From NCBI GenBank assembly GCA_964218365.1, contig CAXPMI010000031.1:9940-73939 (forward strand): a stretch of 64,000 nt of DNA, written 5' to 3'. The notes under the pieces were generated by a model. It was not told the origin of the DNA. It saw only the letters and a program-made list of their open reading frames with translations, and searched no databases. How positions within the stretch are numbered: the stretch's first letter is position 1; every line of letters begins with the position of its first letter. Positions 26,349-42,541 of this stretch are shown here, piece after piece. This stretch comes from Candidatus Poseidoniaceae archaeon. GTDB taxonomy: Archaea > Thermoplasmatota > Poseidoniia > Poseidoniales > Poseidoniaceae. A program made the position numbers and the translations under genes.

Positions 26349-26771
26349 CTAAAAATCATCTGGAATTTCAGTTGGGCTAAACAATTGTCCGGGACCTGCT
26401 GCTTGAGACAACTGGTTCCTTGCAAGGTGTTCCCATGAACGCATCACTCCCAGTGCGTCACTTACCAACATTTGTTCTTCTTCCAAAGTTACCCTAATCA
26501 GAGTATCGAGGATATCCATTCGATCCCTATCGACTAATGAAAGAGCCTTTTCTAAATCAAAGCTAGCATCAGTTTCTACTGGTTCGGAATCGAGTGGCCA
26601 AGGTTGAGCCAGGTTATTTGGCAGTTCATTGGTGTGTTCTCTTAGTTGTGATAACAAGCGATTTGTCCATCTCGAGATTACCAAACTTGTTTCCAAGATT
26701 GGCATGTTTAGTTGATTGATTAGATTCACCAACCTCTCTTGCAATGTGACCATTGAATCTGCGCCACTCAT
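26349..26771 (-). CDS. Hypothetical protein (140 aa).
   Basis: Lies between the giant ORF and the metalloprotease on the same strand with short gaps, so is probably co-transcribed. Confidence 0.45.
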   Translation of the reverse strand: MSGADSMVTLQERLVNLINQLNMPILETSLVISRWTNRLLSQLREHTNELPNNLAQPWPLDSEPVETDASFDLEKALSLVDRDRMDILDTLIRVTLEEEQMLVSDALGVMRSWEHLARNQLSQAAGPGQLFSPTEIPDDF

Positions 26772-26788
26772 CTGAATACCTCAAATGT

Positions 26789-29700
26789 TCACTTACTATT
26801 TTGTAGATATTGGTGACCATAATGGTTCCATTGTTCCATAGTCCATCCTTCCGGCAAGCCAGTTGGTGGTAATGGAGGTGTAGCGGCACCCGCCCCTTGC
26901 GGTGCTAGAGGTTCGTTCTGCACAGGAGCTACAGGGGCAGCTTGCTGGATTTCAGGAACCATCTTAGTATCCATGTTCTCAATAACCTCAGCAGTTTGGT
27001 CAGATTCGTCAACTTCTTCACCACGACGAATTCTTCGCATTTGTACCATTGTCCAAACAGCGAACGACATCGAAACCAATGCAATCAGATACATAATTAC
27101 AGATAATTGAGAATCTGCAACTTGATTTGCGAGTGCTGTACCGTCTCTTTCGACTTCTTCTTTAACCAATAGTGGCGAAATTGAGATTCTTTCTTTTTCT
27201 ACCCCAGAGTCTAGCAGAAGAATCCTGTGTTCTAGTGTATCATCTACTGCTCCGTCGGCGGTAGCTTCTAGCCTAACTTGGGCTGTCTTGCCACTCGAAA
27301 TTTGAATCGACGAAGAGGATATAGTTGCCCAGTCATCACCAGAAACGAGCCTCTGCAGAACGAATGTCACAGTACCTGATGCTCCTGTGTTTCTGGCCTC
27401 GATGGTAAGTGATACTGCTTCATTTGGAGTTGGAGTTGGATTAGACCATTCCCATGTAGTATCTGCCGCTCTCAGACTAACCTCAGGACCTGTCAAGGCC
27501 AGTGGCCAAGATGCCAATGGGTCAGCGACAGTATTTCCTTCACTGTCGTAAGGATTTCCTGACTCATCTGAACCTGTGACCCAAACGTCAATTGTATACG
27601 ATGGAAGGAGCATGGTAGCACCTCCATCAGTCAGGTCAAGATATCCAGTCCAGAAGAATTGGTCTTCGAATGGCGTAGTATCCGGCAGTGGAGATGATCC
27701 TCTACTGATTTCAGCCTCACCTGCTCTGACCAAGTAATGTAATACTGCAGGATCGTCGAGAGAGAATCCTTGGTCATCTCGTGTTTCAAGCATGACTTGC
27801 AAATTGTTTGCAAGGGAAATCGGAATTTCCTGATTTGGTTCTATTCCTCCCAAAGTTACAGCATGAATTGAAGGTCTTTCACTATCGACTGCTAATCTCA
27901 GTCGTGGTTTGAATTCGGATTCATCTTCAGCAAGGCCTGGGAGGTCTTTCAGTTTAGCACGTAGGTCAAGGTGACCACTTCTAACATCTGGTACAAGCAT
28001 GTCAATACTGAAGTATCCTCCTTCTCTGCTTGTAGTTGTCCATTCATTTTCAAAATCTCCTAGAGAGATTGTGAAAGAGCCTGCAGGAGCAGGAGTCTCA
28101 TCCTCTGAGAAGATTACTCTTCCACTGAAACGAAGAGCTTGTCCTGCACCAATCAATGATTCATCAAATTCAGGATTGTAATGGTTTGTTCCATCTCGCA
28201 ATTCAATCGCGAGAATGTGACCCGGTTGAGTGTCAAAGCGCAAGTCATTATCTAGGCTCCACAAATCATTTCCAAGTCCGGCTTTGTGTATGTTACAAGG
28301 AAGGTCTGTGTCAATTCCACAGGACTTATCTTCAATCCAGACTTTCGGAATAAAGTGCTCATTACCGTTTGTGTCCCAGACCTCAGGGAAGTTCCAAGTC
28401 AGTTGGAACTTAATCGATACAATCATTCTAGATTGGAGCTCTGGGTCCAAAATAATCGAAGAATATAGATTGGAAACAGCCAATCCAGTGCCTCCACTCT
28501 CAAGGTACATCTCAGGCATTCCCATTGAGTTTTGTGAAATGTAGGCAAAAATTGAGGTTTCATCATCATCGAAATCACCAGCTAGCGCCAAGTGTACGAA
28601 TTCTACGTCCCACCATCCATTGATATCAGAAATCATGAATGTTGCAGTGTATGGAATCCCGGGATGTAATGGAGCCATATCATCGTGACCCGTTATGGTT
28701 GAATTATCTACATCCATAATCGGTTCAAACTCCTCTCGGATTGTGTACCAGGATAGCGAGTTATCCCAATCAGGTTTGACTTCACCAGGCTTGTCCCCAC
28801 AGAATCCACCAGATTCTACGTCACAAACAGGTGAACCACCCATGGCAATGGTATTATTTTGACCATCTTTCCCTGTTACATAGAAGGCTACTTTATCTCC
28901 ATGAACAAGCATTGAATCATCGATTAATCCGTTGAAAACGTTCAAACCACCTGGTAATATTTCAGGAGTGGTTAGAGTCTTTGAGCGATATTCGATCGGC
29001 TCTGCTAGTCCATTGAAATTAGAATCATCACATCTTTCATTGACTCCTGCCTCACAACCAATCCAGTAGTGAAGGTCTACGGTTTGTGGAGGAGCAACAG
29101 AATCCTGAATGATTATTTCAATTGCTTGTCCGCCGGGAGAAGGGGGACCTTTATGCATCTCTGATGAAGATTCAGGACTTGCGAAGAGTACCAACGGTGC
29201 ATTGCCGTCAAAAATTAACTTGATTGTATTGTAACCCGGGTTGACATATGTTGAACCATTTTCGAGTTCGGTTGCTTCTACGTAGAGAACCATGCCACCT
29301 GGTTCAGATTCTATTGGGGATGCAAAAGTCATGTTATACTGTCCAAATCCAGGATTTCCTTCAGTATGAAGTACAGTAGGTTCTCCAATAGGGTCACCGT
29401 CGTAAGTTACATTTTGACCGATAACTCTGAGTGTAAATTCACCTGCTCTTGGTGAGAATGCTGAATTTTCAAAGTTGATTCCTCCAGTAATCGAGATATT
29501 CAATCCTCCTCGAACCCAATCGCCGGAAAACAACCCCCTTCCTGTTTCTTCCCATACCCTCATTCCATCTAACTGGATATCGTTCTCGATGTTCAGAGCG
29601 AGCGTGTCTGTTGTCCAACCACTAACTTGTGGACCTAGGTCATCACTCAAGGAAACTATTGCTTCCATCTTCCTCTCATCATCCCATGTCCAATTGACTC

Positions 29701-32146
29701 TGAGTGGCATTTTAACCGATACAATTCCCTCGCTGTCCGTTGTTGAAGTACAATTTCCGATATCGAACTCGACGATACCTCCGCCATCACTCTCAACCGA
29801 ACACGAATCGCCACGTAGCCATCTAAATGCTGGGTTTTCCCCATATGAATTATTCAAACCAATCGTAGCCTCAGTGACACGGTCAACCAAATCCCCGTGT
29901 GCTAATCTGACTACTAAATTTCTGTATACACCATCAGGAGCAATCAAGCCTCCTTCTAGGCTTGCATCCAATACTCTAGTGTTGAGTCTGTATTTGATGT
30001 CAAGCTCAGTAAGTTTGACTCTTCCTGGGGTATTTGCTTTGACTGCTATGGGTATTTCGACTGTGCCAATCCCATTCTCCGGGATGTGGTCGTTAAATGC
30101 ATCTACAAGGCTCGGAGTTTCAGATACTACCGTTCCAACCGGAGAATCATCAGATGCAACAACCGAACTCTCATTCAAGAATAGAATTGACTTCCAATCC
30201 CAGTCACCATCATCTCCTACATCCAACTGAGGAGCGTCGGGATACCCTTCTTCATACCACAAGATGAAGGAGTCTACGGCAGGAGTGACTGTATTGTCAG
30301 TAGTTCCCAAAATTATGGAATACAGGAGTTCATTTCCAGCGCCGGAGGTTGAAAATGAAACTTCTTGATTGTTTGTTGCAGACTCCCACGTTGAGCCGTT
30401 ATCGTTAGAGACCATTACGCTAATGCTCGAACTTGAGGGCTCATCTGCTGTCCAAACGGCTCTAACTTTACCGACATTAGTGCCTGTTGAGACCTTTTGG
30501 CTTGTCCAGTCTCCAGAGCTTTGGTATGAAGTAGCGTATTCAAGAGAGACCCACCAAGATACAGCTGATGAACCAATGAGTTGCATTTTCCAAACTAATT
30601 TATTTCCTGGGTGTGTGAAGTGAATGGTTTGGTTTTTCTCAACTGCTTCCCAGTGAGTACCGTTATCTGCACTTACCCAGTAGTCAACTCTGTCACCTTG
30701 TGATGGAGCAGACCAGTGGTTCATGAAATTAACAGCAAGAACGTCATCTTCGGTTACTATAGTCTCACCGATCCATGTTGTGGTACCAGGTGCAGGTGTT
30801 GTAGGGTAGGAAATTCCGATTCCAAATTCACGGTAGTAAAGAGTCTTTGAATTCCATGTTGAATATCCAGTATCAACTGTAATGATTCTCTCACCGTTGT
30901 AGAAGAGTCCAAGTCCTTTCGCAGATATATCCTTAGTTCCGGTTTGTGGCACTAGTGAGGAAGAACTGCCTGAAATGGCCCAAGCGCTTAGTTGGTCTGT
31001 ATCTTGGTAGTAACTACCTTTCATGCATCTCATGTAGAAGAAGCCGGCATGAACTACAAGTCCGTGCACGTTGCTGGAGGTTTTGCCACACTCGGTGCTA
31101 GAGGATGAGCTTGAAGTGAATGAATACTGTTCTTCTCCTCGAGTAAATTGTCCATTATCTCCAAAATCGTAAGACACGATTCTCCTCTGTTGTCCATGAG
31201 CAACCCAAATTTTGTCACTATCCCTGTCATATGAAATCGCACTGTACTCGCCATATTGCGGTGAAATGTCGTAGGAGTCAACACAACGCCAAACCCAATC
31301 ATCAGAGACATCTATTGCCAGAACTCTGCTGTGCTGAGTTGGGTTTGAATTACCGTACATGTACTTGTATGTTGTAAAAATCCCATACAGCATTTCTTCG
31401 TCATTAATGGTCCAATCTTTGAAGCCGTAAGACTTGTAATAAGTCGAACTTGGATCCTGTGGCAGAGTACAAGCCGCTTCCTGTTGCAAGTCAACAACGA
31501 TATCCCTCGTAACGTTGTTTGGGTGCATTCTTGTTACTACCTTGTCAAACTGGGTGCCAGTAAATGTTGACATGAAAAGCCAATCATGGTTCTCAAGAAT
31601 TGCCCCTTGGCCTTGAGCCATCAAGTTTGAACTTGTCATTTTGACTTGATTGCTGAACCTTGATTCAGTGGAGTTTGCGGTGTGAGGTTGGCGTATCGCA
31701 AAACTACCATTGTCCAACCAAGCATCAGAACCAGGTAGAGTTTCTTCATTCATCCCATGAGATAAAAACTCTACATCACTATCATCGAATCCAAGGGTTA
31801 GATCTCCACTTCGTGCGTCACTTTGACTAGACACACCATCCATCCATTCATCATATGTATCAGTTGATACTTGGGACCAACCTGTTGATGAAGCACCAGA
31901 GAGTGTTACTTGCACATCGAGCACTTCAGCCCCCTTTGGGATTGCCACTAAAGTCGTCTTGTCTGCTCCTCCTTGATACAGTGCGATATTTTCAATACTC
32001 CCGTCAGAAAAAGTGTAAATGTGGCGAGATGAACCGTTTGCTTCCGCCTCGGTGATGAACATCTCTGAAAACGGACTCATCGGCGTAAGAACGAGAATGA
32101 ATACCATAATCGACAGCGCGGCACGAGATGAAAATTTCTGCTTCAT
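26789..32146 (-). CDS. Giant secreted surface protein (1785 aa) with a signal peptide, a W/N/T-rich extracellular region, a C-proximal TM anchor and a Pro-rich cytoplasmic tail.
   Basis: N-terminus MKQKFSSRAALSIMVFILVLTPMSPFSEMFITEAEA. The C-terminal TM is VIMYLIALVSMSFAVWTMV, followed by ...PPLPPTGLPEGWTMEQWNHYGHQYLQNSK. There are many N-x-S/T sequons. Confidence 0.85.
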   Translation of the reverse strand: MKQKFSSRAALSIMVFILVLTPMSPFSEMFITEAEANGSSRHIYTFSDGSIENIALYQGGADKTTLVAIPKGAEVLDVQVTLSGASSTGWSQVSTDTYDEWMDGVSSQSDARSGDLTLGFDDSDVEFLSHGMNEETLPGSDAWLDNGSFAIRQPHTANSTESRFSNQVKMTSSNLMAQGQGAILENHDWLFMSTFTGTQFDKVVTRMHPNNVTRDIVVDLQQEAACTLPQDPSSTYYKSYGFKDWTINDEEMLYGIFTTYKYMYGNSNPTQHSRVLAIDVSDDWVWRCVDSYDISPQYGEYSAISYDRDSDKIWVAHGQQRRIVSYDFGDNGQFTRGEEQYSFTSSSSSSTECGKTSSNVHGLVVHAGFFYMRCMKGSYYQDTDQLSAWAISGSSSSLVPQTGTKDISAKGLGLFYNGERIITVDTGYSTWNSKTLYYREFGIGISYPTTPAPGTTTWIGETIVTEDDVLAVNFMNHWSAPSQGDRVDYWVSADNGTHWEAVEKNQTIHFTHPGNKLVWKMQLIGSSAVSWWVSLEYATSYQSSGDWTSQKVSTGTNVGKVRAVWTADEPSSSSISVMVSNDNGSTWESATNNQEVSFSTSGAGNELLYSIILGTTDNTVTPAVDSFILWYEEGYPDAPQLDVGDDGDWDWKSILFLNESSVVASDDSPVGTVVSETPSLVDAFNDHIPENGIGTVEIPIAVKANTPGRVKLTELDIKYRLNTRVLDASLEGGLIAPDGVYRNLVVRLAHGDLVDRVTEATIGLNNSYGENPAFRWLRGDSCSVESDGGGIVEFDIGNCTSTTDSEGIVSVKMPLRVNWTWDDERKMEAIVSLSDDLGPQVSGWTTDTLALNIENDIQLDGMRVWEETGRGLFSGDWVRGGLNISITGGINFENSAFSPRAGEFTLRVIGQNVTYDGDPIGEPTVLHTEGNPGFGQYNMTFASPIESEPGGMVLYVEATELENGSTYVNPGYNTIKLIFDGNAPLVLFASPESSSEMHKGPPSPGGQAIEIIIQDSVAPPQTVDLHYWIGCEAGVNERCDDSNFNGLAEPIEYRSKTLTTPEILPGGLNVFNGLIDDSMLVHGDKVAFYVTGKDGQNNTIAMGGSPVCDVESGGFCGDKPGEVKPDWDNSLSWYTIREEFEPIMDVDNSTITGHDDMAPLHPGIPYTATFMISDINGWWDVEFVHLALAGDFDDDETSIFAYISQNSMGMPEMYLESGGTGLAVSNLYSSIILDPELQSRMIVSIKFQLTWNFPEVWDTNGNEHFIPKVWIEDKSCGIDTDLPCNIHKAGLGNDLWSLDNDLRFDTQPGHILAIELRDGTNHYNPEFDESLIGAGQALRFSGRVIFSEDETPAPAGSFTISLGDFENEWTTTSREGGYFSIDMLVPDVRSGHLDLRAKLKDLPGLAEDESEFKPRLRLAVDSERPSIHAVTLGGIEPNQEIPISLANNLQVMLETRDDQGFSLDDPAVLHYLVRAGEAEISRGSSPLPDTTPFEDQFFWTGYLDLTDGGATMLLPSYTIDVWVTGSDESGNPYDSEGNTVADPLASWPLALTGPEVSLRAADTTWEWSNPTPTPNEAVSLTIEARNTGASGTVTFVLQRLVSGDDWATISSSSIQISSGKTAQVRLEATADGAVDDTLEHRILLLDSGVEKERISISPLLVKEEVERDGTALANQVADSQLSVIMYLIALVSMSFAVWTMVQMRRIRRGEEVDESDQTAEVIENMDTKMVPEIQQAAPVAPVQNEPLAPQGAGAATPPLPPTGLPEGWTMEQWNHYGHQYLQNSK

Positions 32147-32214: not shown

Positions 32215-32236
32215 AATCCCCCCTTTAGGGGGGAAT
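32215..32236 (-). terminator. Hairpin CCCCCC-TTTA-GGGGGG immediately after the stop of the 1895-aa gene.
   Basis: A 6-bp G/C stem plus A/T flanks that extend the pairing. Confidence 0.45.
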
Positions 32237-32243
32237 TCTGGTC

Positions 32244-35200
32244 TCATGACGTATTACGACTGTCGTACCTTATTGGTGAGGAATCGCCACGACTTCCATC
32301 TTCTTCGTCGTCCTTTACTTCGAACCAATCTACTAGCCAATCGCCATCGGTGTCCCAATTAAGTGGGTCACTACCCTCTGCGATGTGGTCATCGTCGAGA
32401 TCTAACAGGTACCAACCGAACTCGTGCTCTCCAAGGTCCACAGCAGGAGCACGGTTTGTGCTTCCAGTGTAATACAAATCCCAGTTATCTGTGACGTCTC
32501 CTGAACACAATAATACATCATTTCCTGAGTCCAAAACTAGGAAATCAGTATCCATGTCATCGATGATTAATGCATAACTTAAGTCATCGATGTTTTTCTT
32601 GTTCATGCTGAGATAATTTGTCTGGTCTTCGGTGTTTTCGCCCAATCCTAGAGTGAAAGCTCTAAATTGCCACCATTCTGTAATCGGCGACCCATCCCAT
32701 GTCTCTCCAGAGAGTCTTACAGAGTCTGGGGAGTCTAGATTTGGATTTGCAATCGCAAAGAATTCCATGAAATTAGTGTAAGCGGTATATTCACAAGTTG
32801 CACCACTACAGTCCCAATTTCCATCTTGGTCTGGGTCTTCATTAGCATCTAGAGGATCTCGTGGGTCAAAAGTAGCCCAAGTCCAACCCAATTCAGGACG
32901 AGATAGTGTCCCTGAATCCTGCGATAAAGGTCTACAGGAAACCGTTGAGGAGGTACAGGCTCCACCTGTACCAGGATCTATCCACTGAACTTCAATTTTC
33001 AATCTTGATGAGAAGTTATCATTCGACTCATTCCATCCTTTTTCGTATTCGTACCAATCCGGCAACATATCGCCATCAGTGTCGTTATCCATTGGATTCG
33101 TTCCATACTTGAAGACCTCTCTACCATCAGATAGATTCCAGTCACGGTCGTGAGAGATTACCTGTCCTGAACTGAGTACAGTGTTGAAGGTTACTGCATC
33201 ATAGTCCGAATCGTTTGTATCAGGCCTAGTGCCGTTTAGATACTCCATTAAGTTGGTAAATGGAAGGTCGCCAATTCCGCTTTGGATTATATCGCCTGAT
33301 GCTGTAAATTCTCTGTTTTCCCATACACCCTGAGGAGCAGGAATATCGAAAGAAGTTCGTCCGTACCAACCATCACTATCAGGGTCATAGTTTACGTCAA
33401 ATGGGTTGACTGGATTTGTTGACCAATGATTTTGAGTTGTTGGGTCCGGTAAACCGTAAACAGCATAACAGAATTCCCAACCATCATCGATACCATCTTG
33501 GTCTGAGTCTGAATTAGTTGGGTCTGTAATACCGAACAAGGTTCTGTTAAAGGTGTTTGAATCTGCCGAGTTAATCATTGCCATTCTAGCAGCAGAAATT
33601 GAGTCTTTACCACTAAAGGTATTGAATATTGCACGTCTTGCTTCAGCCTCTGTGTAACCCTCCTCGATATAGGCATCGATAGTATCGTCACCAAATCCAA
33701 TCAATCCTGACCCAGTCGTAAGTCGCTGCGAGAACTTACCGTAAACTCGAGATTCATATTCACGTTTGTTAGTGAACTGTTCCTCAAGAGAAATATTACC
33801 ATCTCTATCACAATCTACCGAGTCCATATCGCTGTCTAACCATTGGTCGGAATCGATCAATGGGTTCATTGACCACCGATTGTTTTCCAAGTCCCACTTT
33901 GTAAACCAATACTCGTAACCATCAATCATTCCATCGTCGTCCGTGTCAGCGATTGTAGGGTCTGTTATTCCCATCAAAGTTGAGATGAAATTATTGGCGA
34001 CACCTGTCGATTGCCACTCTTGGAACTCATCTAGGTGCCTATTTCCTCTTTGCCCCTTGTCGAGAATAATTGTATACACTCTCTGTGCCTTTTGAGTCGG
34101 GTCATTCAAGTCACCATCAATGTGCATTAATGGTGCATCAATCGGGTGGTTTTCTCCATTCTCAGGATTGGTTGTAACGAGCGAAAACTCTTGCGCATCT
34201 GTAAGAGCGTCATCATCTGCGTCGAATGAACCATCACCGGGCACTAGTGGATTTAGAGTCCAAGTCTGTGCTGTGTCATTCCACGCTGTGAACATCAGTT
34301 CCAAACCATCAAGGAATCCATCACCATCGGTATCAGGGTTTGTTGGATCTGTAGTCCATCCTGAGACATTGATTATGTCCTGTCCAACAAATGAGCCAAA
34401 TGATTCAGGATTCGTAATTCCTGCCCACTGTTGAAGGGTATATCCACTTCCAATTGTAGTTACATACCACTGGGGACTAGTTCGATTAGCATTGGTCTCA
34501 GAAAGTTCTGGAGAGATGCTATTGTACTCTTCCCAATTACTCATTCCGTCATCATCGGAGTCATCCCAGCGGTCGTTTGAGTTGAGTGGATCTAAGCTCC
34601 ATTTAGAATCCAGTAATTCCCATCTAGCGTACCAAATCTCCCAACCATCAGGCATTCCATCAGAATCACTGTCTGCATCTGTTGGATCACCTGTCAATAT
34701 ACCATCTCCAAAGTTATCCTCTGGTGCACCCCAATCGGAGATATTCCTGAACAAGTCTGTGGAGAAATTGTTAGGAAGAACTTCGCCATCCAGAGTCATG
34801 TTTCCATCAAACAAATCATCTCGAATATTGTATTCTAACCAATTCACGAATGCCTCGTTTTCTTCTATGATTCCATTGTGATTGATATCATAACCATCAC
34901 CGTCAGGATTTTCAAATGCATCACTTCCATTGAGCGGATTTATTCCAACTCTAGAAACATCCCAGGTACAAGCACCCCGGGCCTCCCAACCATCAGGCAG
35001 ACCATCTCCATCTGAATCTCTATTGTTGGGGTCTGGCTCTGCCCAGAGTTCGACAGCTGCTTCTGTTTCAAAGTGACTTTCAAGTAAATCTCCAATCAGT
35101 CCTGAATCTTTTACCAACGACCACTGATATTCACAAAGATTCGTCAATCCGTCGCCGTCTGCGTCCCATTCCGCATCGTTGGGGTCGCTTGGATCCATTG

Positions 35201-37931
35201 TCCAATTATTTGAACCAGTGAATGACGAACCAATCCATCTCCTGTTCTCTAATTCCCAGCCATCTGGCATTCCATCCCCATCAGAATCAGGGTTGGTTGC
35301 GTCGGTACCAGAATCGATACCCAGAGATTGAAGATATGTGTTGTTTGCAGCAAGACCTGCAGCATCATCACACACGTGTACGAAATCGTATTGGTTAGTG
35401 TAGTGGCAATTCAACGGAGTTACTTCATGAAATAGCCCGAAATATTCCGCTCCATCACCAACTCCGTCACCATCTGTATCAACAACTCTAGGGTCAGTTG
35501 CATTGTAACCATTTGCGGTTGTAGCAGTATATCTGAACTCATCCAAATTCCTCCACAGTCTTTCGTTGATAGGGTCACTATCTAGATTGACACCATCTGC
35601 ATCAGCGTCTAGAAGCGCATCCCATGGATCAGTTGGGTCTAGACCGTACCTAACTTCCCAACCATCCAACATCCCATCTGCATCTGAATCATTTGCCATT
35701 GGATCCATCAGTTCTAGATTCGAGAATTTTCCAGGTCCAATTCCAACAAATATCTTGTCAACTCCTTCTACCTGATAGACTATTGCTGCTGAAATGTAAC
35801 CCGGGATCCACTCCTGGTTTGTCATTCCATAAACTGCAGCATATCCGCCATTTATCGACCACAGACCCCATGCAGAACCGACTATGAGTTCGTTCCCGGT
35901 AGAATAAATCGAGGAAATATCGTTAGCAAAGTCGACTGTTTCACCGTCTATACCTTGATGTTCTAAGTCACCGCCAAAAGTGATTAGTCCAGAAAGAAGG
36001 TCATATCGGTGCAAACCTGAAGGGGTTCCTATCCAAACAACTTGCTCTTGACCGCCTTCTGGCCCGTCACCGAGTAGAGCGTTGACGTGTGCTGGATTTT
36101 TATCAACTTCAGCGCCTATAGTTCTGAGTTCATCAATATCCGTCGCAATTAGAGTTGGTTCTGGAGAGAAGTAGAATCTCCAGTTAGGTGTTGCTGCATC
36201 TCTAGCAGTATTTGTCTCGACAGTCAGTAGTCCTACATCTGTTCCAATGAATAAGGTCAGAGAACCACCGGTTGCATCTACATGTGCGATAGAGGTGACT
36301 GTAGCGTTCCCAGTGTTGAGTGCGTTTGTTATACCAGTTCCAACACTTAGTTGGGAAACAGAAATCTCATTGATTTGGAAAACAGAACCAAATCCAGAGT
36401 ATCCTAGGGCCAGGACGTAATCATCCCCTCCATCTGCAATCAACTGCGCACCAGCTGAATACCTTCCGGGATAGAATTCCCATTGGGTGATTGGCTCGAT
36501 TACTGCCTCGCTATATTCTGCTATCCAAACTCCAGCTTCAGTAACCATAACTACATGATTCTCTAAGATAATCATGTCATGTAAATCGTGCCCTTGGGGT
36601 AATTCGTAATCGGTAGAAACATCGTTATCGAAGTCGATTATTGAAATTCCTAACTTAGTACCCACCCACAATCTTTCACCGTCATCATGGAATCCTCTTA
36701 TGTCATGGTGTATTACTGAGACATCTTCTTCATCAGCTTCTTGTGATAGAAGATACTCTGTGTAAGTACCCTCAGTCGCACTAAGATCTGCAGACCTCAT
36801 TCCTGATTTCACCATGTTTCCATCGTCTAAATGCACAAAGTATTCTTCAAGAGTGGACAATTGTTCACCTAGGGCTAATGCTTCTTCGGAACGTTGTAAA
36901 TCAAGACTTATGATCCCATCTCTGTTGGTATCCCAACCATCGTTATCTAAGTCAATCAACGCGTTGGACCGATTTAGAGGGTCTAGTCCAAAGTGAATTT
37001 CCCAACCATCTGGGATTCCATCCCCGCTAGATGGGAATAAACGACGATGCTTTACACCGTCGTAATTGAATCTGTCACTATCTTCTTCAATTGGGTTGGT
37101 ACCAAGCCAAACATATTCATCGATAACCCCATCCGTGCCATTTCTAGCACAAGCATCAAGGATATTAGTTAGTTTGGTTGAATTAATGTTTTCTGAAATA
37201 AAAGGCCATTCATTCAATGGCGATGCACCTGGATTTGGTGCATGACATCTAAGCCCATCCAGTTCATTTGTCCAATTTGTAGGTGCACCAAAGAGGTATT
37301 CCTCAGGAGAGGTTAGTAACTCACTCACACTCATGAATCCATCTCGGTTTACATCGAATCCGTCGTCATCAGGATCTAAATCAGCATCACTGGCGTTCAA
37401 TGGGTCAAACATTTCACAGACGTATCGCTTTTCTTCGGTATCAAATCCACCGAGTTTTTCGCACATGTGTGCTTCATAGCCATCCGGCATTCCGTCTCCA
37501 TCGGTATCTGCAACTCTTGGGTCGAGGTACCAACGTTCACCAGACTCGTTGATTACTCCTGTAAGGCCTCTAGTAAATCCGGGGTCAACACATTCTGCTG
37601 GATAAGGCCAACAATATTCTTCCGTAGCATTCAGCCCATCGAGGTCTATATCGATGTAAGCGTCAGAAGCATCATCTCTGTCCATCCCTTTCATGACTAC
37701 AGCCCTATTATCTGGAGAAGAGAAGTTTATCCAGTCGCTGAACAAGTTCTCGTGCACATCGGGAATATTGTCTCCGTCTGAATCTGTAGCAGGAGGCCTC
37801 TCACCTTCCGTAAAATTAGGATTAGTAGTACCTACATTGGAGATAGCAGGTAATTGTGAAACAAAGAACAAACCTAGGACAACAAGAATAGTCATGAGAA
37901 GCGTTGATTGAGAGCGTCGCATTGTCATCAC
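32244..37931 (-). CDS. Giant secreted protein (1895 aa) carrying more than 12 thrombospondin-type-3-like calcium-binding repeats (D-x-D-x-D-G-x-P-D-G-[WY]-E) and beta-propeller-like regions.
   Basis: Signal MMTMRRSQSTLLMTILVVLGLFFVSQLPA. Repeated DTDGDGMPDGYE, DSDGDGMPDGWE, DSDGDGLPDGWE, DSDSDGMPDGWE, DTDGDGFLDGLE, DTDDDGMIDGYE, DSDQDGIDDGWE and others. There is no C-terminal TM. Confidence 0.85.
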   Translation of the reverse strand: MMTMRRSQSTLLMTILVVLGLFFVSQLPAISNVGTTNPNFTEGERPPATDSDGDNIPDVHENLFSDWINFSSPDNRAVVMKGMDRDDASDAYIDIDLDGLNATEEYCWPYPAECVDPGFTRGLTGVINESGERWYLDPRVADTDGDGMPDGYEAHMCEKLGGFDTEEKRYVCEMFDPLNASDADLDPDDDGFDVNRDGFMSVSELLTSPEEYLFGAPTNWTNELDGLRCHAPNPGASPLNEWPFISENINSTKLTNILDACARNGTDGVIDEYVWLGTNPIEEDSDRFNYDGVKHRRLFPSSGDGIPDGWEIHFGLDPLNRSNALIDLDNDGWDTNRDGIISLDLQRSEEALALGEQLSTLEEYFVHLDDGNMVKSGMRSADLSATEGTYTEYLLSQEADEEDVSVIHHDIRGFHDDGERLWVGTKLGISIIDFDNDVSTDYELPQGHDLHDMIILENHVVMVTEAGVWIAEYSEAVIEPITQWEFYPGRYSAGAQLIADGGDDYVLALGYSGFGSVFQINEISVSQLSVGTGITNALNTGNATVTSIAHVDATGGSLTLFIGTDVGLLTVETNTARDAATPNWRFYFSPEPTLIATDIDELRTIGAEVDKNPAHVNALLGDGPEGGQEQVVWIGTPSGLHRYDLLSGLITFGGDLEHQGIDGETVDFANDISSIYSTGNELIVGSAWGLWSINGGYAAVYGMTNQEWIPGYISAAIVYQVEGVDKIFVGIGPGKFSNLELMDPMANDSDADGMLDGWEVRYGLDPTDPWDALLDADADGVNLDSDPINERLWRNLDEFRYTATTANGYNATDPRVVDTDGDGVGDGAEYFGLFHEVTPLNCHYTNQYDFVHVCDDAAGLAANNTYLQSLGIDSGTDATNPDSDGDGMPDGWELENRRWIGSSFTGSNNWTMDPSDPNDAEWDADGDGLTNLCEYQWSLVKDSGLIGDLLESHFETEAAVELWAEPDPNNRDSDGDGLPDGWEARGACTWDVSRVGINPLNGSDAFENPDGDGYDINHNGIIEENEAFVNWLEYNIRDDLFDGNMTLDGEVLPNNFSTDLFRNISDWGAPEDNFGDGILTGDPTDADSDSDGMPDGWEIWYARWELLDSKWSLDPLNSNDRWDDSDDDGMSNWEEYNSISPELSETNANRTSPQWYVTTIGSGYTLQQWAGITNPESFGSFVGQDIINVSGWTTDPTNPDTDGDGFLDGLELMFTAWNDTAQTWTLNPLVPGDGSFDADDDALTDAQEFSLVTTNPENGENHPIDAPLMHIDGDLNDPTQKAQRVYTIILDKGQRGNRHLDEFQEWQSTGVANNFISTLMGITDPTIADTDDDGMIDGYEYWFTKWDLENNRWSMNPLIDSDQWLDSDMDSVDCDRDGNISLEEQFTNKREYESRVYGKFSQRLTTGSGLIGFGDDTIDAYIEEGYTEAEARRAIFNTFSGKDSISAARMAMINSADSNTFNRTLFGITDPTNSDSDQDGIDDGWEFCYAVYGLPDPTTQNHWSTNPVNPFDVNYDPDSDGWYGRTSFDIPAPQGVWENREFTASGDIIQSGIGDLPFTNLMEYLNGTRPDTNDSDYDAVTFNTVLSSGQVISHDRDWNLSDGREVFKYGTNPMDNDTDGDMLPDWYEYEKGWNESNDNFSSRLKIEVQWIDPGTGGACTSSTVSCRPLSQDSGTLSRPELGWTWATFDPRDPLDANEDPDQDGNWDCSGATCEYTAYTNFMEFFAIANPNLDSPDSVRLSGETWDGSPITEWWQFRAFTLGLGENTEDQTNYLSMNKKNIDDLSYALIIDDMDTDFLVLDSGNDVLLCSGDVTDNWDLYYTGSTNRAPAVDLGEHEFGWYLLDLDDDHIAEGSDPLNWDTDGDWLVDWFEVKDDEEDGSRGDSSPIRYDSRNTS

Positions 37932-38112
37932 CTAAGGGCGCGGTAGCACCCATGCAGTTTGTTACTATGGAATCAGCCTTAATAGAGTGATGGAGCAATG
38001 TTCAGACTCAGATTACCTTTGGTAATCTAAAACGATTAAGCAAATCAATAGAAAATGAGAATTTCAAGGGGTGAGTTCAAGGGCCCAACGCGTTGCCGTC
38101 CCTTAGTTCGAG

Positions 38113-38991: not shown

Positions 38992-40029
38992 ATGAGGTCA
39001 CAACGCAAGTCCGGAAGTGACCTCGCCGTCAGTGAAGTCATTGGTGTCGTGATGCTGCTTGCGATGGTAATCACAATGATGGGAGGAGTGTTTGTATTTC
39101 TTACCCCATATGTGAATGATTTTCAAGATAATACCGCATGGTCAAACGCAAATGGGATTGCGGAAAGGCTAGACGGAAGAATCGATGTCGTTGCAGGAGC
39201 AAGTGCAGACACCGGACTTAGAACTACAATTCCCTTGACTATGAGCTCGATTTCTCCTATAATAAGTGCAGAAGTATGGACTGTTTCTGCTGATTTGACT
39301 GCGGGAGAGACTGTCACGGTCAATTACATCAATCAAACAACATTCAGTATACTATCGGAAAATGAAACAGCAGACCGTGCGGTAATATGGACAGAAGGTG
39401 GGGAAGTCGAAATATCATTCAATGAAACATACGAAGAAATTTTGATTAAACACAATTTGAGTGTTGCAGACATTTACATTGTAACAGTGTTCGATGGAGA
39501 GAATGAGATACACAAGCATGCAAAGATACCAATTTCAGGATTAATGGTAAAGACCAAAGTTCAGACTGGTGAGCATTCGATTGGACTCCTGAATGATGCT
39601 CGTTACGACAAATTCACTGATGAAACCTGGAGTATAACTTCGTCTCCTGACATGAATATTGAAGAGTTATTTGATGGCACAATGAGAGCTAGTTTGTCTC
39701 TGAGAGACGTAGACACAGTTGGTGCAATTCCAGACGGTAGAAACGCAATCTTCGATATCCGTTCAGAAGGTCCGATTACCCTGTTTAGTGGTGATGCATG
39801 GAATTTCAGATTTACATTTGACTCATCACTAGGACCAACTGTCGCCCCACAGATGACAGAGGGATGGTTAACCGACTACAACCTTCACAGAGCGTCGAAT
39901 ACTCTAGACCAACATAGAGGAATCAGTCCTTGGTTGAGGGCAAGTGGAATCGATGGTATGACAATCGACCACGGCAATTCTGTAATCGATCTTGAAATCG
40001 AATTGCAATTGGTGGAGGTTAGCAGATGA
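38992..40029 (+). CDS. Archaeal type IV pilin-like protein (class III signal peptide), 345 aa.
   Basis: N-terminus MRSQRKSGSDLAVSEVIGVVMLLAMVITMMGGVFVFL. It has a charged n-region, a small residue, then VSE (Glu at +3) and a long hydrophobic helix, as in archaeal prepilins/DUF1628-type pilins. Confidence 0.65.
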   Translation: MRSQRKSGSDLAVSEVIGVVMLLAMVITMMGGVFVFLTPYVNDFQDNTAWSNANGIAERLDGRIDVVAGASADTGLRTTIPLTMSSISPIISAEVWTVSADLTAGETVTVNYINQTTFSILSENETADRAVIWTEGGEVEISFNETYEEILIKHNLSVADIYIVTVFDGENEIHKHAKIPISGLMVKTKVQTGEHSIGLLNDARYDKFTDETWSITSSPDMNIEELFDGTMRASLSLRDVDTVGAIPDGRNAIFDIRSEGPITLFSGDAWNFRFTFDSSLGPTVAPQMTEGWLTDYNLHRASNTLDQHRGISPWLRASGIDGMTIDHGNSVIDLEIELQLVEVSR

Positions 40030-42074
40030 TGCAAAATAACCTCCGCAGGGACGAGGAAGCAGTTAGCGCTGCTGTAGCCACCGTTCTACTCTTTGGAGGA
40101 GTAATTTCAATTATTGGAATTATGCTACTTTCCTTGATGCCAGTTATACAAGAATTAGAAGGTTCTCTCAAGAGAAATGATATGCAAGCCCAAATGGAGA
40201 TAATGGCTCACGAAGTAACATTATTGTCTGAATCCGGATTACCTGGCGACTCTAGTCAAGTCCAACTTATTCCGGTTGATGGTGAATTACGATGGGATAG
40301 ACTCAGAGGAGGAATGTGGTATTCTGCATCTTGGTATGAAGGTGATACTTTCAGAATCCAAGGGGCTCTAGACTTGGACCGAAATATCGACGTAAGGCAT
40401 GCCGAAAGCAATGTACAGGCGATTTGCTATGAAGATATGAGACTAGGTCCAGACAGACCATTCATATTCTCCCCAAATAATCAAACCGATACAATACTAG
40501 TAACACCTAAACATGGTTTGACAATACCCCTCGGTCCTGTTGAAATTGAACACGCAGGAATAGAGCACTCTCTTTCGATAGGAGAGGTTATGAGTTTAGA
40601 TTCAAACCACCAAATCAAATCAAGTCATGATTTGGTTGGCTTACAGATAAGAGGGGATTCGGGAGTTGCACTTATGCCACCTTCCAAGGCAAATCCCTCA
40701 ACTGGTAAGGGGCAACATTGGGCAATTCCTCTACCAGTGGGAGAAACTACAATCGAAGTCTTCGCAGACGATGACATCCTCGTTCAATGGCAGACTCTAA
40801 CTGAATCTGGGCAAGAAGCAATACCCCAAACCACAGCTGTTAGAATAGCAAACTCATGGACAAAAACATTCAATCTATCAGAGATTAGTTTAGTGGAGAT
40901 AGTTACTGACGTCGATGCTCATCTGATTATTTCTCATGGCAATTCTGGTAAAACCTCACTGTTGGGAGAAGAGGGGAATTATCTCTCTAAGCACTTCATA
41001 GCGCCTTCGCAATCTGGGAATTTATCGTTCTCTAATCCGAGTCAAAATGCTGCAACAATTACATGGAAAAATGGCGGCATATCTGTACCTGCCAACCAAA
41101 CCATAGAAGTTGAGTGGCCTCCATCTAATATCGATAGTGCTGCGATCTTAGAAAGTAGCGAGAATGTTCTCGTTCAGTGGAAACTAAATGACAAAGGAAT
41201 GACATTCTTACCTGCAACCGACACAGGTCAAATCACTGGACTAGATTTCATTGAAGATAATTCACAGACGATTATCAACCATTCTTCTGAATATGGTGAC
41301 TATCAATCAAAATTGGCAAAAGATGGGAATTCGGGAATTCTTGCGCTAGAGGATGATGGAGCTATGCGCTGTGTCGCAATAGACCAGACTGCATCCGGAT
41401 GGATTTCAACTACCCTGCCGTGGAAATCAATGAATGGTATACCCGAAGGGCAGATCATCACTGCTTGGAGAAATGGAGATCACCCCGCAAGTATTGAGAT
41501 AACTTTGATTGGGACAGAAGGAGATGCAACTCACGCTAACTTAGCAACAGCATGGGCATTCCATATATCGAGATTAACATACGAATTTGATACCTCGATT
41601 ACAGGCCTTGAAGTTGCATGGTCTGCCGGTGCAATTGTTACAAATCATCCCGAGTTAGATCCTACAATATTAGTTGGACCAACAGACAGACAGGGCCCAG
41701 GGCCAAGGTTCAGTGCAACAATACCTTCGATGCACCCTACTCAAACATCAGTTACTGGTAGCGGGATAATGAACCTTGATATCGAACTATCAATGAGAGA
41801 AAGTCTTGCCTCTACAACAGCCTATGATGTGAGGAGAGGGTGGGTAGGTCCGTATGGAGATGCGGTTGCTTCTTGGGCAAGTACAAGCCTAGAGACTTCC
41901 GAAGACTGGATAGTTAATCCCGGAAGAATTGACTTGCTTACAGACTATGTTGGTTGGGTCCCTGTTCCTACAGTTGGACCTAGTGAAGCCGTATGGCATA
42001 CAGCAGGTCAGCCAATACAGTTCAATCTGCAAATTAGCAGCCTAGATGTTGAAATTTCGGAGGCGGGGTCATGA
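40026..42074 (+). CDS. Archaeal type IV pilin-like protein, large (682 aa).
   Basis: N-terminus MMQNNLRRDEEAVSAAVATVLLFGGVISIIGIMLL. Its start overlaps the upstream stop (ATGA), which suggests an operon. Confidence 0.65.
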   Translation: MMQNNLRRDEEAVSAAVATVLLFGGVISIIGIMLLSLMPVIQELEGSLKRNDMQAQMEIMAHEVTLLSESGLPGDSSQVQLIPVDGELRWDRLRGGMWYSASWYEGDTFRIQGALDLDRNIDVRHAESNVQAICYEDMRLGPDRPFIFSPNNQTDTILVTPKHGLTIPLGPVEIEHAGIEHSLSIGEVMSLDSNHQIKSSHDLVGLQIRGDSGVALMPPSKANPSTGKGQHWAIPLPVGETTIEVFADDDILVQWQTLTESGQEAIPQTTAVRIANSWTKTFNLSEISLVEIVTDVDAHLIISHGNSGKTSLLGEEGNYLSKHFIAPSQSGNLSFSNPSQNAATITWKNGGISVPANQTIEVEWPPSNIDSAAILESSENVLVQWKLNDKGMTFLPATDTGQITGLDFIEDNSQTIINHSSEYGDYQSKLAKDGNSGILALEDDGAMRCVAIDQTASGWISTTLPWKSMNGIPEGQIITAWRNGDHPASIEITLIGTEGDATHANLATAWAFHISRLTYEFDTSITGLEVAWSAGAIVTNHPELDPTILVGPTDRQGPGPRFSATIPSMHPTQTSVTGSGIMNLDIELSMRESLASTTAYDVRRGWVGPYGDAVASWASTSLETSEDWIVNPGRIDLLTDYVGWVPVPTVGPSEAVWHTAGQPIQFNLQISSLDVEISEAGS

Positions 42075-42541
42075 CAAATAGATTGGTCGATGACGAATCT
42101 GGAGCTAGCACTGAACTTGGCTACATTTTCACATTCATGCTCGGAGTATTGTTCCTCTCAATGTTTAGTGTCTGGGCGTTTGGCTTAGAAACGTCAACTA
42201 GGGAGAACTGGAATAGAACTGCTGTAGATGTTAACATGGCAGATATTGCTGCTGCGGTTGAAAGGGCCGATATGGCAAGCAGAGAAGACTCTAGTGTGAG
42301 TTACGCAGAAGTAGTGACATGGAGATTAACCGAAGCAGACGAGACCGACTTTGTTCTCACCTTGGATGACACTGGACTATCACTCGATCATAGCGAGAAT
42401 GAACTGGACAGAGAAGTTTCGATATCTGGAACGGGATATGGTACATATGATGGAAGAATCAATCTTTCAGGGACTGCAGAGATTTGGGTCGTTTACCACG
42501 AAGGTGTGACCTATCTCTCAACAACTAGACCAGATTTCTGA
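42071..42541 (+). CDS. Archaeal type IV pilin-like protein, small (156 aa).
   Basis: N-terminus MTNRLVDDESGASTELGYIFTFMLGVLFLSMF (DDxxGxSTE plus hydrophobic). Its start overlaps the upstream stop. Confidence 0.6.
   Translation: MTNRLVDDESGASTELGYIFTFMLGVLFLSMFSVWAFGLETSTRENWNRTAVDVNMADIAAAVERADMASREDSSVSYAEVVTWRLTEADETDFVLTLDDTGLSLDHSENELDREVSISGTGYGTYDGRINLSGTAEIWVVYHEGVTYLSTTRPDF

Follow-up and report, generated by a model that had tools for sequence, protein, structure and literature searches.

The DNA analyzed here is a stretch of 64,000 nucleotides (nt) from Candidatus Poseidoniaceae archaeon (GenBank assembly GCA_964218365.1, contig CAXPMI010000031.1, positions 9,940 to 73,939 of the forward strand), herein referred to as the window. 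It belongs to the Poseidoniaceae (Marine Group IIa, MGIIa), and its closest named relatives show 84-96% identity. Positions 32244..37931 of the minus strand contain an open reading frame (ORF) of 1895 codons plus a stop codon, with a GTG start. A previous sequence-only reading of this DNA had described the same ORF as a secreted protein of 1895 amino acids (aa) built around thrombospondin type 3 (TSP3)-like Ca-binding repeats, and the extent of the ORF was recovered as described. The product, herein referred to as the Ca-loop protein, is by sequence comparison a diverged member of the bacterial-type TSP3, or DxDxDG, repeat class and is predicted to contain a seven-bladed β-propeller, overlooked previously. 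Two in-frame ATG codons are located downstream of the GTG, at 37928 and 37922. Because the N-termini of the orthologues read MRRxQ, one of these ATGs is probably the start of the real protein, which would be 1-3 codons shorter than the GTG ORF.

The Ca-loop protein is very acidic, with a computed isoelectric point of 4.05. Its composition (D 13.1%, N 6.8%, W 3.4%, E 6.4%, and K 1.3%) agrees with the Asn/Asp/Trp-rich segments described earlier. The only hydrophobic segment found by a hydropathy scan is aa 6-30 (37842..37916, minus strand, as for all features of this gene), a signal peptide or signal-anchor in which AlphaFold2 (AF2) places a helix at aa 6-26. This segment is followed by an N-terminal Ca-module region with three two-part modules (aa 45-375, 36807..37799), by the predicted propeller (aa 377-735, 35727..36803), and by a C-terminal Ca-module region (aa 738-1895, 32247..35720). 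In the latter, seven two-part modules are complete and one is split; two A-only loops are also present, and unique inserts separate these units. A terminator-like hairpin, TCCCCCCTAAAGGGGGGA, followed by a T-rich tail, is located 10 nt past the stop codon (32217..32234), so that the gene does appear to have its own terminator, as had been proposed.

The repeated motif of the protein, herein referred to as the A loop, was described by the relaxed pattern D-x-D-x-D-[GNMW]-x-x-D-[GWV]-[WYLFAH]-E. This pattern has 12 matches in the protein vs. 0.00025 expected per composition-preserving shuffle, and no more than one match was found in any of 20,000 shuffles. A stricter pattern had no match outside the ORF in a six-frame scan of the window. 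The 12 matches are DSDGDNIPDVHE (aa 50-61, 37749..37784), DTDGDGMPDGYE (aa 142-153, 37473..37508), DSDADGMLDGWE (aa 748-759, 35655..35690), DTDGDGVGDGAE (aa 818-829, 35445..35480), DSDGDGMPDGWE (aa 882-893, 35253..35288), DSDGDGLPDGWE (aa 972-983, 34983..35018), DSDSDGMPDGWE (aa 1087-1098, 34638..34673), DTDGDGFLDGLE (aa 1200-1211, 34299..34334), DTDDDGMIDGYE (aa 1329-1340, 33912..33947), DSDQDGIDDGWE (aa 1475-1486, 33474..33509), DTDGDMLPDWYE (aa 1617-1628, 33048..33083), and DTDGDWLVDWFE (aa 1860-1871, 32319..32354). The first of them, at aa 50, was missing from the earlier list. Together with a degenerate copy outside the relaxed pattern, SSGDGIPDGWE (aa 301-311, 36999..37031), which is the third in order, the protein has 13 A loops, in line with the earlier count of at least 12.

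Five positions of the A loops, D1, D3, D5, D9, and E12, are invariant in the protein. In a non-redundant set of 57 orthologues (pairwise identity <80%), positions 1, 3, 5, 9, and 12 of the 12 complete loops are 98-100% conserved, and positions 2, 4, 7, and 8 are variable. In DxDxDG and EF-hand loops, the ligands classically occupy these conserved positions, and the ligand Asp residues hold up on closer alignment. The D-G-[WY]-E ending, earlier called invariant, is present in only 8 of the 13 loops; the other endings are DGLE, DGAE, DWYE, DWFE, and DVHE. The loops are spaced by 64-159 aa, apart from a 447-aa gap that holds the propeller and a 243-aa gap near the C-terminus. The proposed spacing of 90-160 aa is right for the upper bound of the regular intervals and does not cover these two gaps, because of which the motif cannot be said to run along the whole protein; none is present in aa 377-735. 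The nucleotide sequences of the copies share 60-76% identity over no more than 55 nt and are not arranged in tandem arrays, so the repeats are old, and the contrast between protein-level conservation and DNA-level divergence was correctly described before. Every loop keeps its position between the orthologues of MGIIa and Marine Group IIb (MGIIb), in agreement with the view that the repeats are ancient and under purifying selection.

The A loop is only one part of the repeat. Hidden Markov models (HMMs), built from the orthologue alignment of each inter-motif segment, recognise the other segments with E-values of 1e-8 to 1e-17, but the matches are confined to the first 55-80 positions, and the homologous unit is therefore a two-part module of 55-80 aa. 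It consists of an A loop (..PDGWE), a Trp-rich linker, an NPL motif, and a second loop, herein referred to as the B loop (DxDxDG..N..EY). The module consensus is xDPTxxDSDGDGMPDGWE - x5 - W - x6 - W - xxDPLNxSDAxx - DxDxDG - (optional EF loop) - xNxxEY, and the 40-80 residues C-terminal to each module are unique sequence. The B loop (DxDxDG, often followed by ..N..E[YF]) is located 27-44 aa after the A loop, and this distance is 37 aa for four modules. A canonical EF-hand loop comes directly after the B loop in four modules. Counting 13 A, 12 B, and 4 EF-type loops, the protein has about 29 candidates for Ca2+ binding, arranged in roughly 10 two-part modules.

Two of the B loops overlap the EF-type loops that follow them: DPDDDGFDVNRD (aa 186-197, 37341..37376) overlaps DVNRDGFMSVSE (aa 193-204, 37320-37355), and DLDNDGWDTNRD (aa 327-338, 36918..36953) overlaps DTNRDGIISLDL (aa 334-345, 36897-36932). 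Two others are fused to them: NPDGDGYD (from aa 1008) to DINHNGIIEENE (aa 1015-1026; together 34854..34910), and DSDMDSVD (from aa 1366) to DCDRDGNISLEE (aa 1373-1384; together 33780..33836). The remaining B loops are DIDLDGLNATEE (aa 94-105, 37617..37652), DADADGVNLDSD (aa 775-786, 35574..35609), DADGDGLTNLCE (aa 923-934, 35130..35165), DSDDDGMSNWEE (aa 1124-1135, 34527..34562), DADDDALTDAQE (aa 1237-1248, 34188..34223), DPDSDGWYGRTS (aa 1516-1527, 33351..33386), DPDQDGNWDCSG (aa 1699-1710, 32802..32837), and the B-like loop DLDDDHIAEGSD (aa 1844-1855, 32367..32402). In most B loops, D1, D3, D5, and G6 are at or near 100% conservation in the 57 orthologues. The EF pattern D-x-[DN]-x-[DN]-G-x-[ILV]-x-x-x-E is complete in the loops at aa 193, 1015, and 1373, and the final Glu is replaced by Leu in the loop at aa 334. 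D1 and G6 are 100% conserved in all four EF-type loops, as is E12 in the three complete ones.

The affiliation of these loops was analyzed with family models, homology searches, and structure databases. For the whole protein, the sole Pfam match was TSP3_bac (PF18884), with 20.0 bits and E 6e-4, under the 25-bit gathering cut-off. Unit by unit, TSP3_bac was the best model in 7 of 10 units (10.6-21.5 bits, all sub-threshold), and a precomputed PF18884 match is carried by nine orthologues. The low score can be explained by the structure of the repeats, whose modules are pushed apart by Trp-rich and unique inserts. Two NCBIfam models, CglD (NF033765; 27.8 bits over aa 743-986) and MtsD (NF047639; 25.3 bits), were also matched far under their equivalog cut-offs of 400 and 800, respectively.

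The decisive evidence is transitive and comes from relatives of the protein. A phmmer search with aa 300-1499 as the query (1.84 billion cluster representatives, searched exhaustively; E <= 1e-3) yielded 1637 clusters; the top-ranking non-orthologues among them are giant proteins that align to the query in 10-27 stretches. Of five such relatives scanned with the TSP3_bac model, four are unambiguous TSP3_bac proteins, with 79-393 bits; the relatives P0133, P0134, P0148, and P0152 match the query at E 9e-68 to 5e-51. Relatives with strong TSP3_bac matches have the same tandem of A and B loops, with a period of 23 or 49 aa. One relative, P0133, is encoded among archaeal RNA-polymerase and ribosomal genes. 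Since these relatives are unambiguous TSP3_bac proteins, the Ca-loop protein is assigned to the bacterial TSP3 class, with which it shares the pattern and order of A loop, GxDPL connector, and B loop. The repeats of typical TSP3_bac proteins are contiguous, whereas here the A and B loops are split by the Trp-rich insert and each pair precedes 40-80 aa of unique sequence, so that the A loops are 64-159 aa apart. Further differences are the EF-hand loop added in four modules, the sub-threshold score of the Pfam model, the archaeal origin, the fixed length across an order, and the propeller in the middle of the protein. Among viral contigs of IMG/VR, the sole match was weak and of a generic TSP3 kind (33% identity), and no sign of viral capture of the gene was found.

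The earlier likening of the repeats to TSP3 Ca-binding loops stands for the bacterial type only. The eukaryotic TSP_3 model (PF02412), which had been named as the check, reached 13.3 bits at best vs. a cut-off of 25, and in one unit only. Because of this low score, the lack of intra-repeat Cys, and the lack of a fold match, the protein is not placed in the eukaryotic family. It has 17 Cys, several of them conserved among the orthologues, and none in the A loops. No thrombospondin or COMP chain was found among 60 of the 120 Protein Data Bank (PDB) matches of the module profile, and none was listed for the A-loop profile. A Foldseek search of the C-terminal model against PDB gave no match with E <1, and thus no counterpart of the thrombospondin signature fold, a contiguous repeat wire packed on a C-terminal lectin-like domain. 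A profile of full-length orthologues matched PDB sequences only by chance (SMC4, E 0.33).

Among solved structures, the A-loop profile matched all five Ca-binding TSP3 repeats of the OmpA-family protein 5WTL (E 1.5e-6), which has the same DTDGDG(I/M)PD core and likewise consists of acidic Ca2+-binding loops with little regular secondary structure. According to the title of Dai et al. (2017), as cited in PMC6593220, an intra-repeat disulfide is needed for Ca2+ binding by OmpA and eukaryotic TSP3 repeats; the A loops differ from these repeats, and from those of thrombospondin and COMP, by having no Cys. Weaker matches (E 0.05-0.6) cover the DxDxDGIPDxWE region of C2-II, Vip4, and anthrax PA. We take this region of anthrax PA to be a Ca2+ site. 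The corresponding Pfam family, Binary_toxB (PF03495, anthrax PA Ca-binding domain), gave 11.6-13.7 bits vs. 25, over profile positions 1-17 of 78 only.

The loops also resemble EF-hand pairs. They have 12 residues, ligands at positions 1, 3, 5, 9, and 12, and Gly at position 6; the distance from A to B is about 37 aa, and the module profile aligns with calmodulin 91-144 (the C-lobe EF-hand pair), lanmodulin, Bap, and anthrax PA 173-206. The AF2 model of the C-terminal region is mostly coil, with a short helix starting within the C-terminal end of each loop, as the exiting helix of an EF-hand does. In contrast to EF-hands, the A loop is not preceded by a predicted entering helix, and position 8 is Pro rather than Ile, Leu, or Val. 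Moreover, the profile matches are marginal (E 0.002-0.14), and the Pfam models EF-hand_1/5/6/7 gave 10-19 bits on the EF-type loops (15.5-19.4 bits for DVNRDGFMSVSE and 16.7-17.6 bits for DCDRDGNISLEE) vs. cut-offs of 25-30.

From the conservation of the ligand positions and the matches to Ca-binding structures, we infer that the loops bind Ca2+. The sub-threshold family scores and the marginal PDB matches besides 5WTL (E 0.002-1) would also fit a superficial likeness to TSP3 and EF-hand loops, in which the D-rich motifs bind no metal and serve as turn or packing elements, or as signals for glycosylation or processing. We consider this very improbable, as the conserved positions are exactly the canonical ligands 1, 3, 5, 9, and 12 with Gly 6, whereas positions 2, 4, 7, and 8 vary. 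Further arguments against it are the strong homology to bona fide TSP3_bac proteins and the weak matches that OmpA 5WTL and anthrax PA give in this 12-residue motif region.

Orthologues of the Ca-loop protein were found throughout the order Poseidoniales. A search for homologous proteins gave 492 matches. With few exceptions, the best 120 of them have 1875-1946 aa and are collinear with the Ca-loop protein over the full length, at identities from 95% to 43%. Their named sources are Poseidoniaceae, Thalassarchaeaceae, and metagenome-assembled genomes (MAGs) labelled 'Euryarchaeota archaeon'. Almost all are annotated as 'hypothetical protein', and one as 'thrombospondin type 3 repeat-containing protein'. 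Among GTDB species genomes, 445 contigs contain a relative, and the best 80 carry full-length genes in Poseidoniales MAGs and single-amplified genomes (SAGs). Two of these 80 contigs, labelled 'Salinimicrobium sp.' (MAG, L054) and 'Deltaproteobacteria bacterium' (SAG, L076), have a typical Poseidoniales gene context and are probably mis-binned or contaminated records. Homologues in Poseidoniales, for which a check had been suggested, were thus found in both families and in all genomes of the order that were examined, and the protein is, judging from these comparisons, a full-length collinear orthologue and a surface-protein candidate that is near-universal in the order.

Two structure models, of aa 1-760 and aa 700-1895, were built by AF2. 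The first, from a 56-sequence orthologue alignment, is confident, with a mean predicted local distance difference test (pLDDT) of 88 and a predicted template modelling score (pTM) of 0.80; pLDDT is about 85-93 in the N-terminal Ca-module region. In this model, aa 377-731 are all-beta and form seven four-stranded blades, with pLDDT >90 over most of them. A check for a β-propeller had been suggested along with the earlier description, and aa 377-735 are indeed predicted to form one with seven blades. Foldseek gave 885 PDB matches to it at E <= 1e-3, and the top ones are propellers, including WD40 proteins and Bacteroides hybrid two-component sensors (E about 1e-9). The propeller is the least conserved region among the orthologues (0.25-0.45 vs. 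0.55-0.8 elsewhere), and for this reason it is likely to be a ligand-binding head.

Of the fold matches listed, the highest sequence identities (13-17%, at E about 4e-9 to 6e-8) belong to the glycan-sensing periplasmic propellers of the Bacteroides hybrid two-component sensors BT4663 and BT4673. Such matches could mean that the propeller is the functional core of the protein, an extracellular sensor or enzyme, for instance a propeller of the glycan-binding or lyase type, and that the Ca modules are a spacer or stabiliser. A distant relative with TSP3_bac and propeller repeats has the source name 'streptogramin lyase', and a gene for a STAND-NTPase/TPR regulator is conserved nearby. Nevertheless, we regard this explanation as improbable. 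Unlike BT4663 and BT4673, the Ca-loop protein has a single propeller instead of a tandem pair, no Pfam Reg_prop match, and no kinase or response output; as its only hydrophobic segment is N-terminal, it lacks a transmembrane (TM) signalling domain and any cytoplasmic output. No enzyme family was matched in Pfam or NCBIfam, and the low conservation of the propeller fits poorly with a conserved active site. In addition, about 80% of the protein is the Ca-module region, which is under strong constraint.

The gene order around the Ca-loop gene is stable across 84 loci. In order, it comprises a giant gene with an STT3/AglB fusion, an S8 protease gene, a giant gene with β-helix and Big_7 domains, a STAND-NTPase/TPR gene, a divergent gene of the metallo-β-lactamase (MBL) fold, the Ca-loop gene, and an ORF of 140-156 aa. 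In the window, the first of these is an ORF of 3179 aa (50921-60460, minus strand), with an STT3/AglB oligosaccharyltransferase domain at aa ~370-988. Pfam STT3 is above its cut-off there, and TIGR04154 (184 bits) is under its cut-off of 450. This domain is joined to extracellular-type domains that span more than 2000 aa (CarboxypepD_reg, choice-of-anchor T-like), and the protein ends in a C-terminal TM segment. The MGIIb counterpart has 3171 aa and the same position; the AglB fusion is unusually large. An ORF of 843 aa (42542-45073, minus strand) encodes a STAND-type NTPase (AAA_16) that also has TPR repeats and, apparently, a DNA-binding region at its N-terminus. It adjoins surface-protein genes in all loci examined, with 54-98% identity, and could regulate the locus.

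Between the MBL gene and the STAND/TPR gene, three genes (345, 682, and 156 aa; 38992-42541, plus strand) encode proteins whose N-termini resemble those of archaeal type IV pilins (Pilin_N, DUF7289, DUF7266). On the other side of the Ca-loop gene, a protein of 1785 aa (26789-32146, minus strand) has an N-terminal signal and, at the other end, a TM segment with a Pro-rich cytoplasmic tail. It matched no family of Pfam or NCBIfam, apart from a 12-bit hint of BNR. Most MGIIa and some MGIIb lineages have the 1785-aa gene and the three pilin-like genes, which other lineages lack; these genes are accessory insertions rather than obligate partners. The 1785-aa gene had been presented as an adhesin-like giant adjoining the Ca-loop gene. 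As a dedicated partner it was rejected, because it is missing in many loci that keep the Ca-loop gene. A common cytoplasmic tail motif in the two C-terminally anchored neighbouring giants was also rejected, as BLASTP found no similarity.

The ORF of 140 aa (26349-26771, minus strand) is 39% identical between the families. It is located directly downstream of the Ca-loop gene in MGIIb and after the inserted 1785-aa gene in MGIIa. No Pfam family was found for this ORF or for an ORF of 252 aa. The intergenic region between the divergent MBL-fold and Ca-loop genes contains a perfect inverted repeat, GATTACC-aaa-GGTAATC (38011-38027), which is present, exact and in the same place, in the eight most closely related loci; it may be an operator for divergent promoters. 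Scans of the window for tRNA genes and Rfam families found nothing.

The Ca-loop protein contains 30 N-x-S/T sequons vs. 17.5 +/- 3.9 expected, most of them conserved in the orthologues. Its C-terminal tail, ..DDEEDGSRGDSSPIRYDSRNTS (aa 1876-1895, 32247..32306), has no TM segment, and few stretches of the protein are as well conserved as these last 20 residues (..RGDSSPIRYDSR..); the tail looks like a docking peptide. The tail (..DGSRGDSSPIRYDSR.., 32247-32306, minus strand) also holds a conserved RGD tripeptide. Thrombospondin-1 carries RGD within its type 3 repeats as well; the parallel is probably coincidental.

Taken together, these data make it reasonably probable that the Ca-loop protein is a core surface protein of the Poseidoniales (Marine Group II, MGII), exported, N-glycosylated, and folded by Ca2+ into a stiff acidic scaffold around the propeller. 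The Ca-dependent extracellular scaffold of the sequence-only reading is accordingly plausible; export, glycosylation, Ca2+ binding, stiffening, and a function in adhesion or binding are what we infer. The protein would be exported through its single N-terminal hydrophobic helix, either cleaved or retained as an anchor, and the exported protein would be N-glycosylated; the gene for AglB belongs to the same locus. Outside the cell, it would fold around seawater Ca2+, which has a concentration of about 10 mM, held by about 29 DxDxDG-type loops. The A and B loops, 27-44 aa apart, may act like the two loops of an EF-hand pair, joined by the Trp-rich linker. The Ca-loaded modules would then form a stiff, strongly acidic scaffold that flanks the propeller on both sides, and the propeller, as the variable part, would be the probable head for binding a glycan, particle, or cell-surface ligand.

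Several observations weigh against this reading. All Pfam and NCBIfam matches of the protein are below the curated cut-offs. The AF2 model of aa 700-1895 is of moderate confidence (pLDDT 75, pTM 0.50), with block-mean pLDDT mostly about 80-93 over aa ~930-1500 and ~1620-1890, and Foldseek found nothing below E 0.4 for it in PDB and BFVD, so that the C-terminal Ca-module region has no fold match there. The lack of a C-terminal anchor bears on how the protein would be retained on the cell if its signal is cleaved. Finally, the length is near-constant (1875-1946 aa) and the identity between the two families, 43%, is within the 32-55% of cytoplasmic neighbours, both of which are atypical for adhesins.

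The fixed length and the neighbour-like divergence point rather to a structural role in the envelope. The protein could be an S-layer-associated or canopy protein and not an adhesin, with Ca2+ loops that cross-link the wall and a propeller that makes lattice or partner contacts. The genes are full-length, collinear, and near-constant in length in the best 80 loci, from both families, and diverge like their housekeeping neighbours. Synteny with the AglB/STT3 giant, the S8 protease, and another giant surface protein is also consistent with such a role, as are the enrichment in sequons and the strongly conserved C-terminal tail, which could dock to a partner. We nevertheless hold it to be possible but rather unlikely. 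No similarity to known S-layer families was found in Pfam, NCBIfam, and PDB profile searches. Euryarchaeal S-layer glycoproteins typically carry a C-terminal TM or PGF-CTERM anchor; the Ca-loop protein has neither, whereas two neighbouring giants do have C-terminal TM anchors. Literature searches gave no data on its expression or abundance. A more far-reaching proposal, which we consider doubtful, is that the Ca-loop protein is the main organiser of the Poseidoniales envelope, forming a Ca-dependent surface layer or matrix of TSP3/EF-hand-like modules around a propeller, unlike any described archaeal S-layer. If this were true, the archaea that are most abundant in the surface ocean would depend structurally on seawater Ca2+, and no solved relative would exist for the fold of the C-terminal module region.

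For the favoured surface scaffold with a binding propeller, the closest characterised analogue is CglD, the adventurous-gliding lipoprotein and integrin-like adhesin of Myxococcus xanthus. CglD and MtsD of this bacterium are cell-surface proteins with about 12 DxDxDG repeats. In the preprint text searched (bioRxiv 10.1101/2023.10.19.562135), CglD is described as a surface protein with 12 DxDxDG repeats that mediates Ca2+-dependent adhesion in gliding, and without a β-propeller. The Ca-loop protein further differs from CglD in having no VWA match in Pfam, no lipobox, and no Cys in the signal region.

For Ca. Poseidoniales, Rinke et al. (2019; PMC6461757) report a 'widespread presence of thrombospondin ... 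genes', which they tie to adhesion, a statement repeated in PMC8821943. This call is based on KEGG Orthology (KO) and may refer to the orthologue group of the Ca-loop protein. For marine ammonia-oxidising archaea, TT3R-containing proteins have been proposed to contribute to a cell-surface matrix (PMC6593220). In the literature searched, the order-wide orthologue of 1,900 aa, the EF-augmented two-part module, the central propeller, and the AglB-containing locus are not described, and nothing specific was found on the S-layer, large surface proteins, or adhesion of MGII. The Ca-loop protein adds an uncharacterised member to a known class of Ca-loop surface proteins and does not represent a new kind of system.

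The Poseidoniales rank among the most abundant archaea of the surface ocean and, to our knowledge, have never been cultured. Their cell surface matters for particle attachment, virus entry, and grazing. As a sequence feature, the Ca-loop protein extends a known repeat family in a way that is useful to specialists in marine archaea and unsurprising in kind. It offers a testable prediction, about 29 Ca2+ sites together with a binding propeller, and antibodies, metaproteomic tracking, and structural work could sensibly be directed at it.

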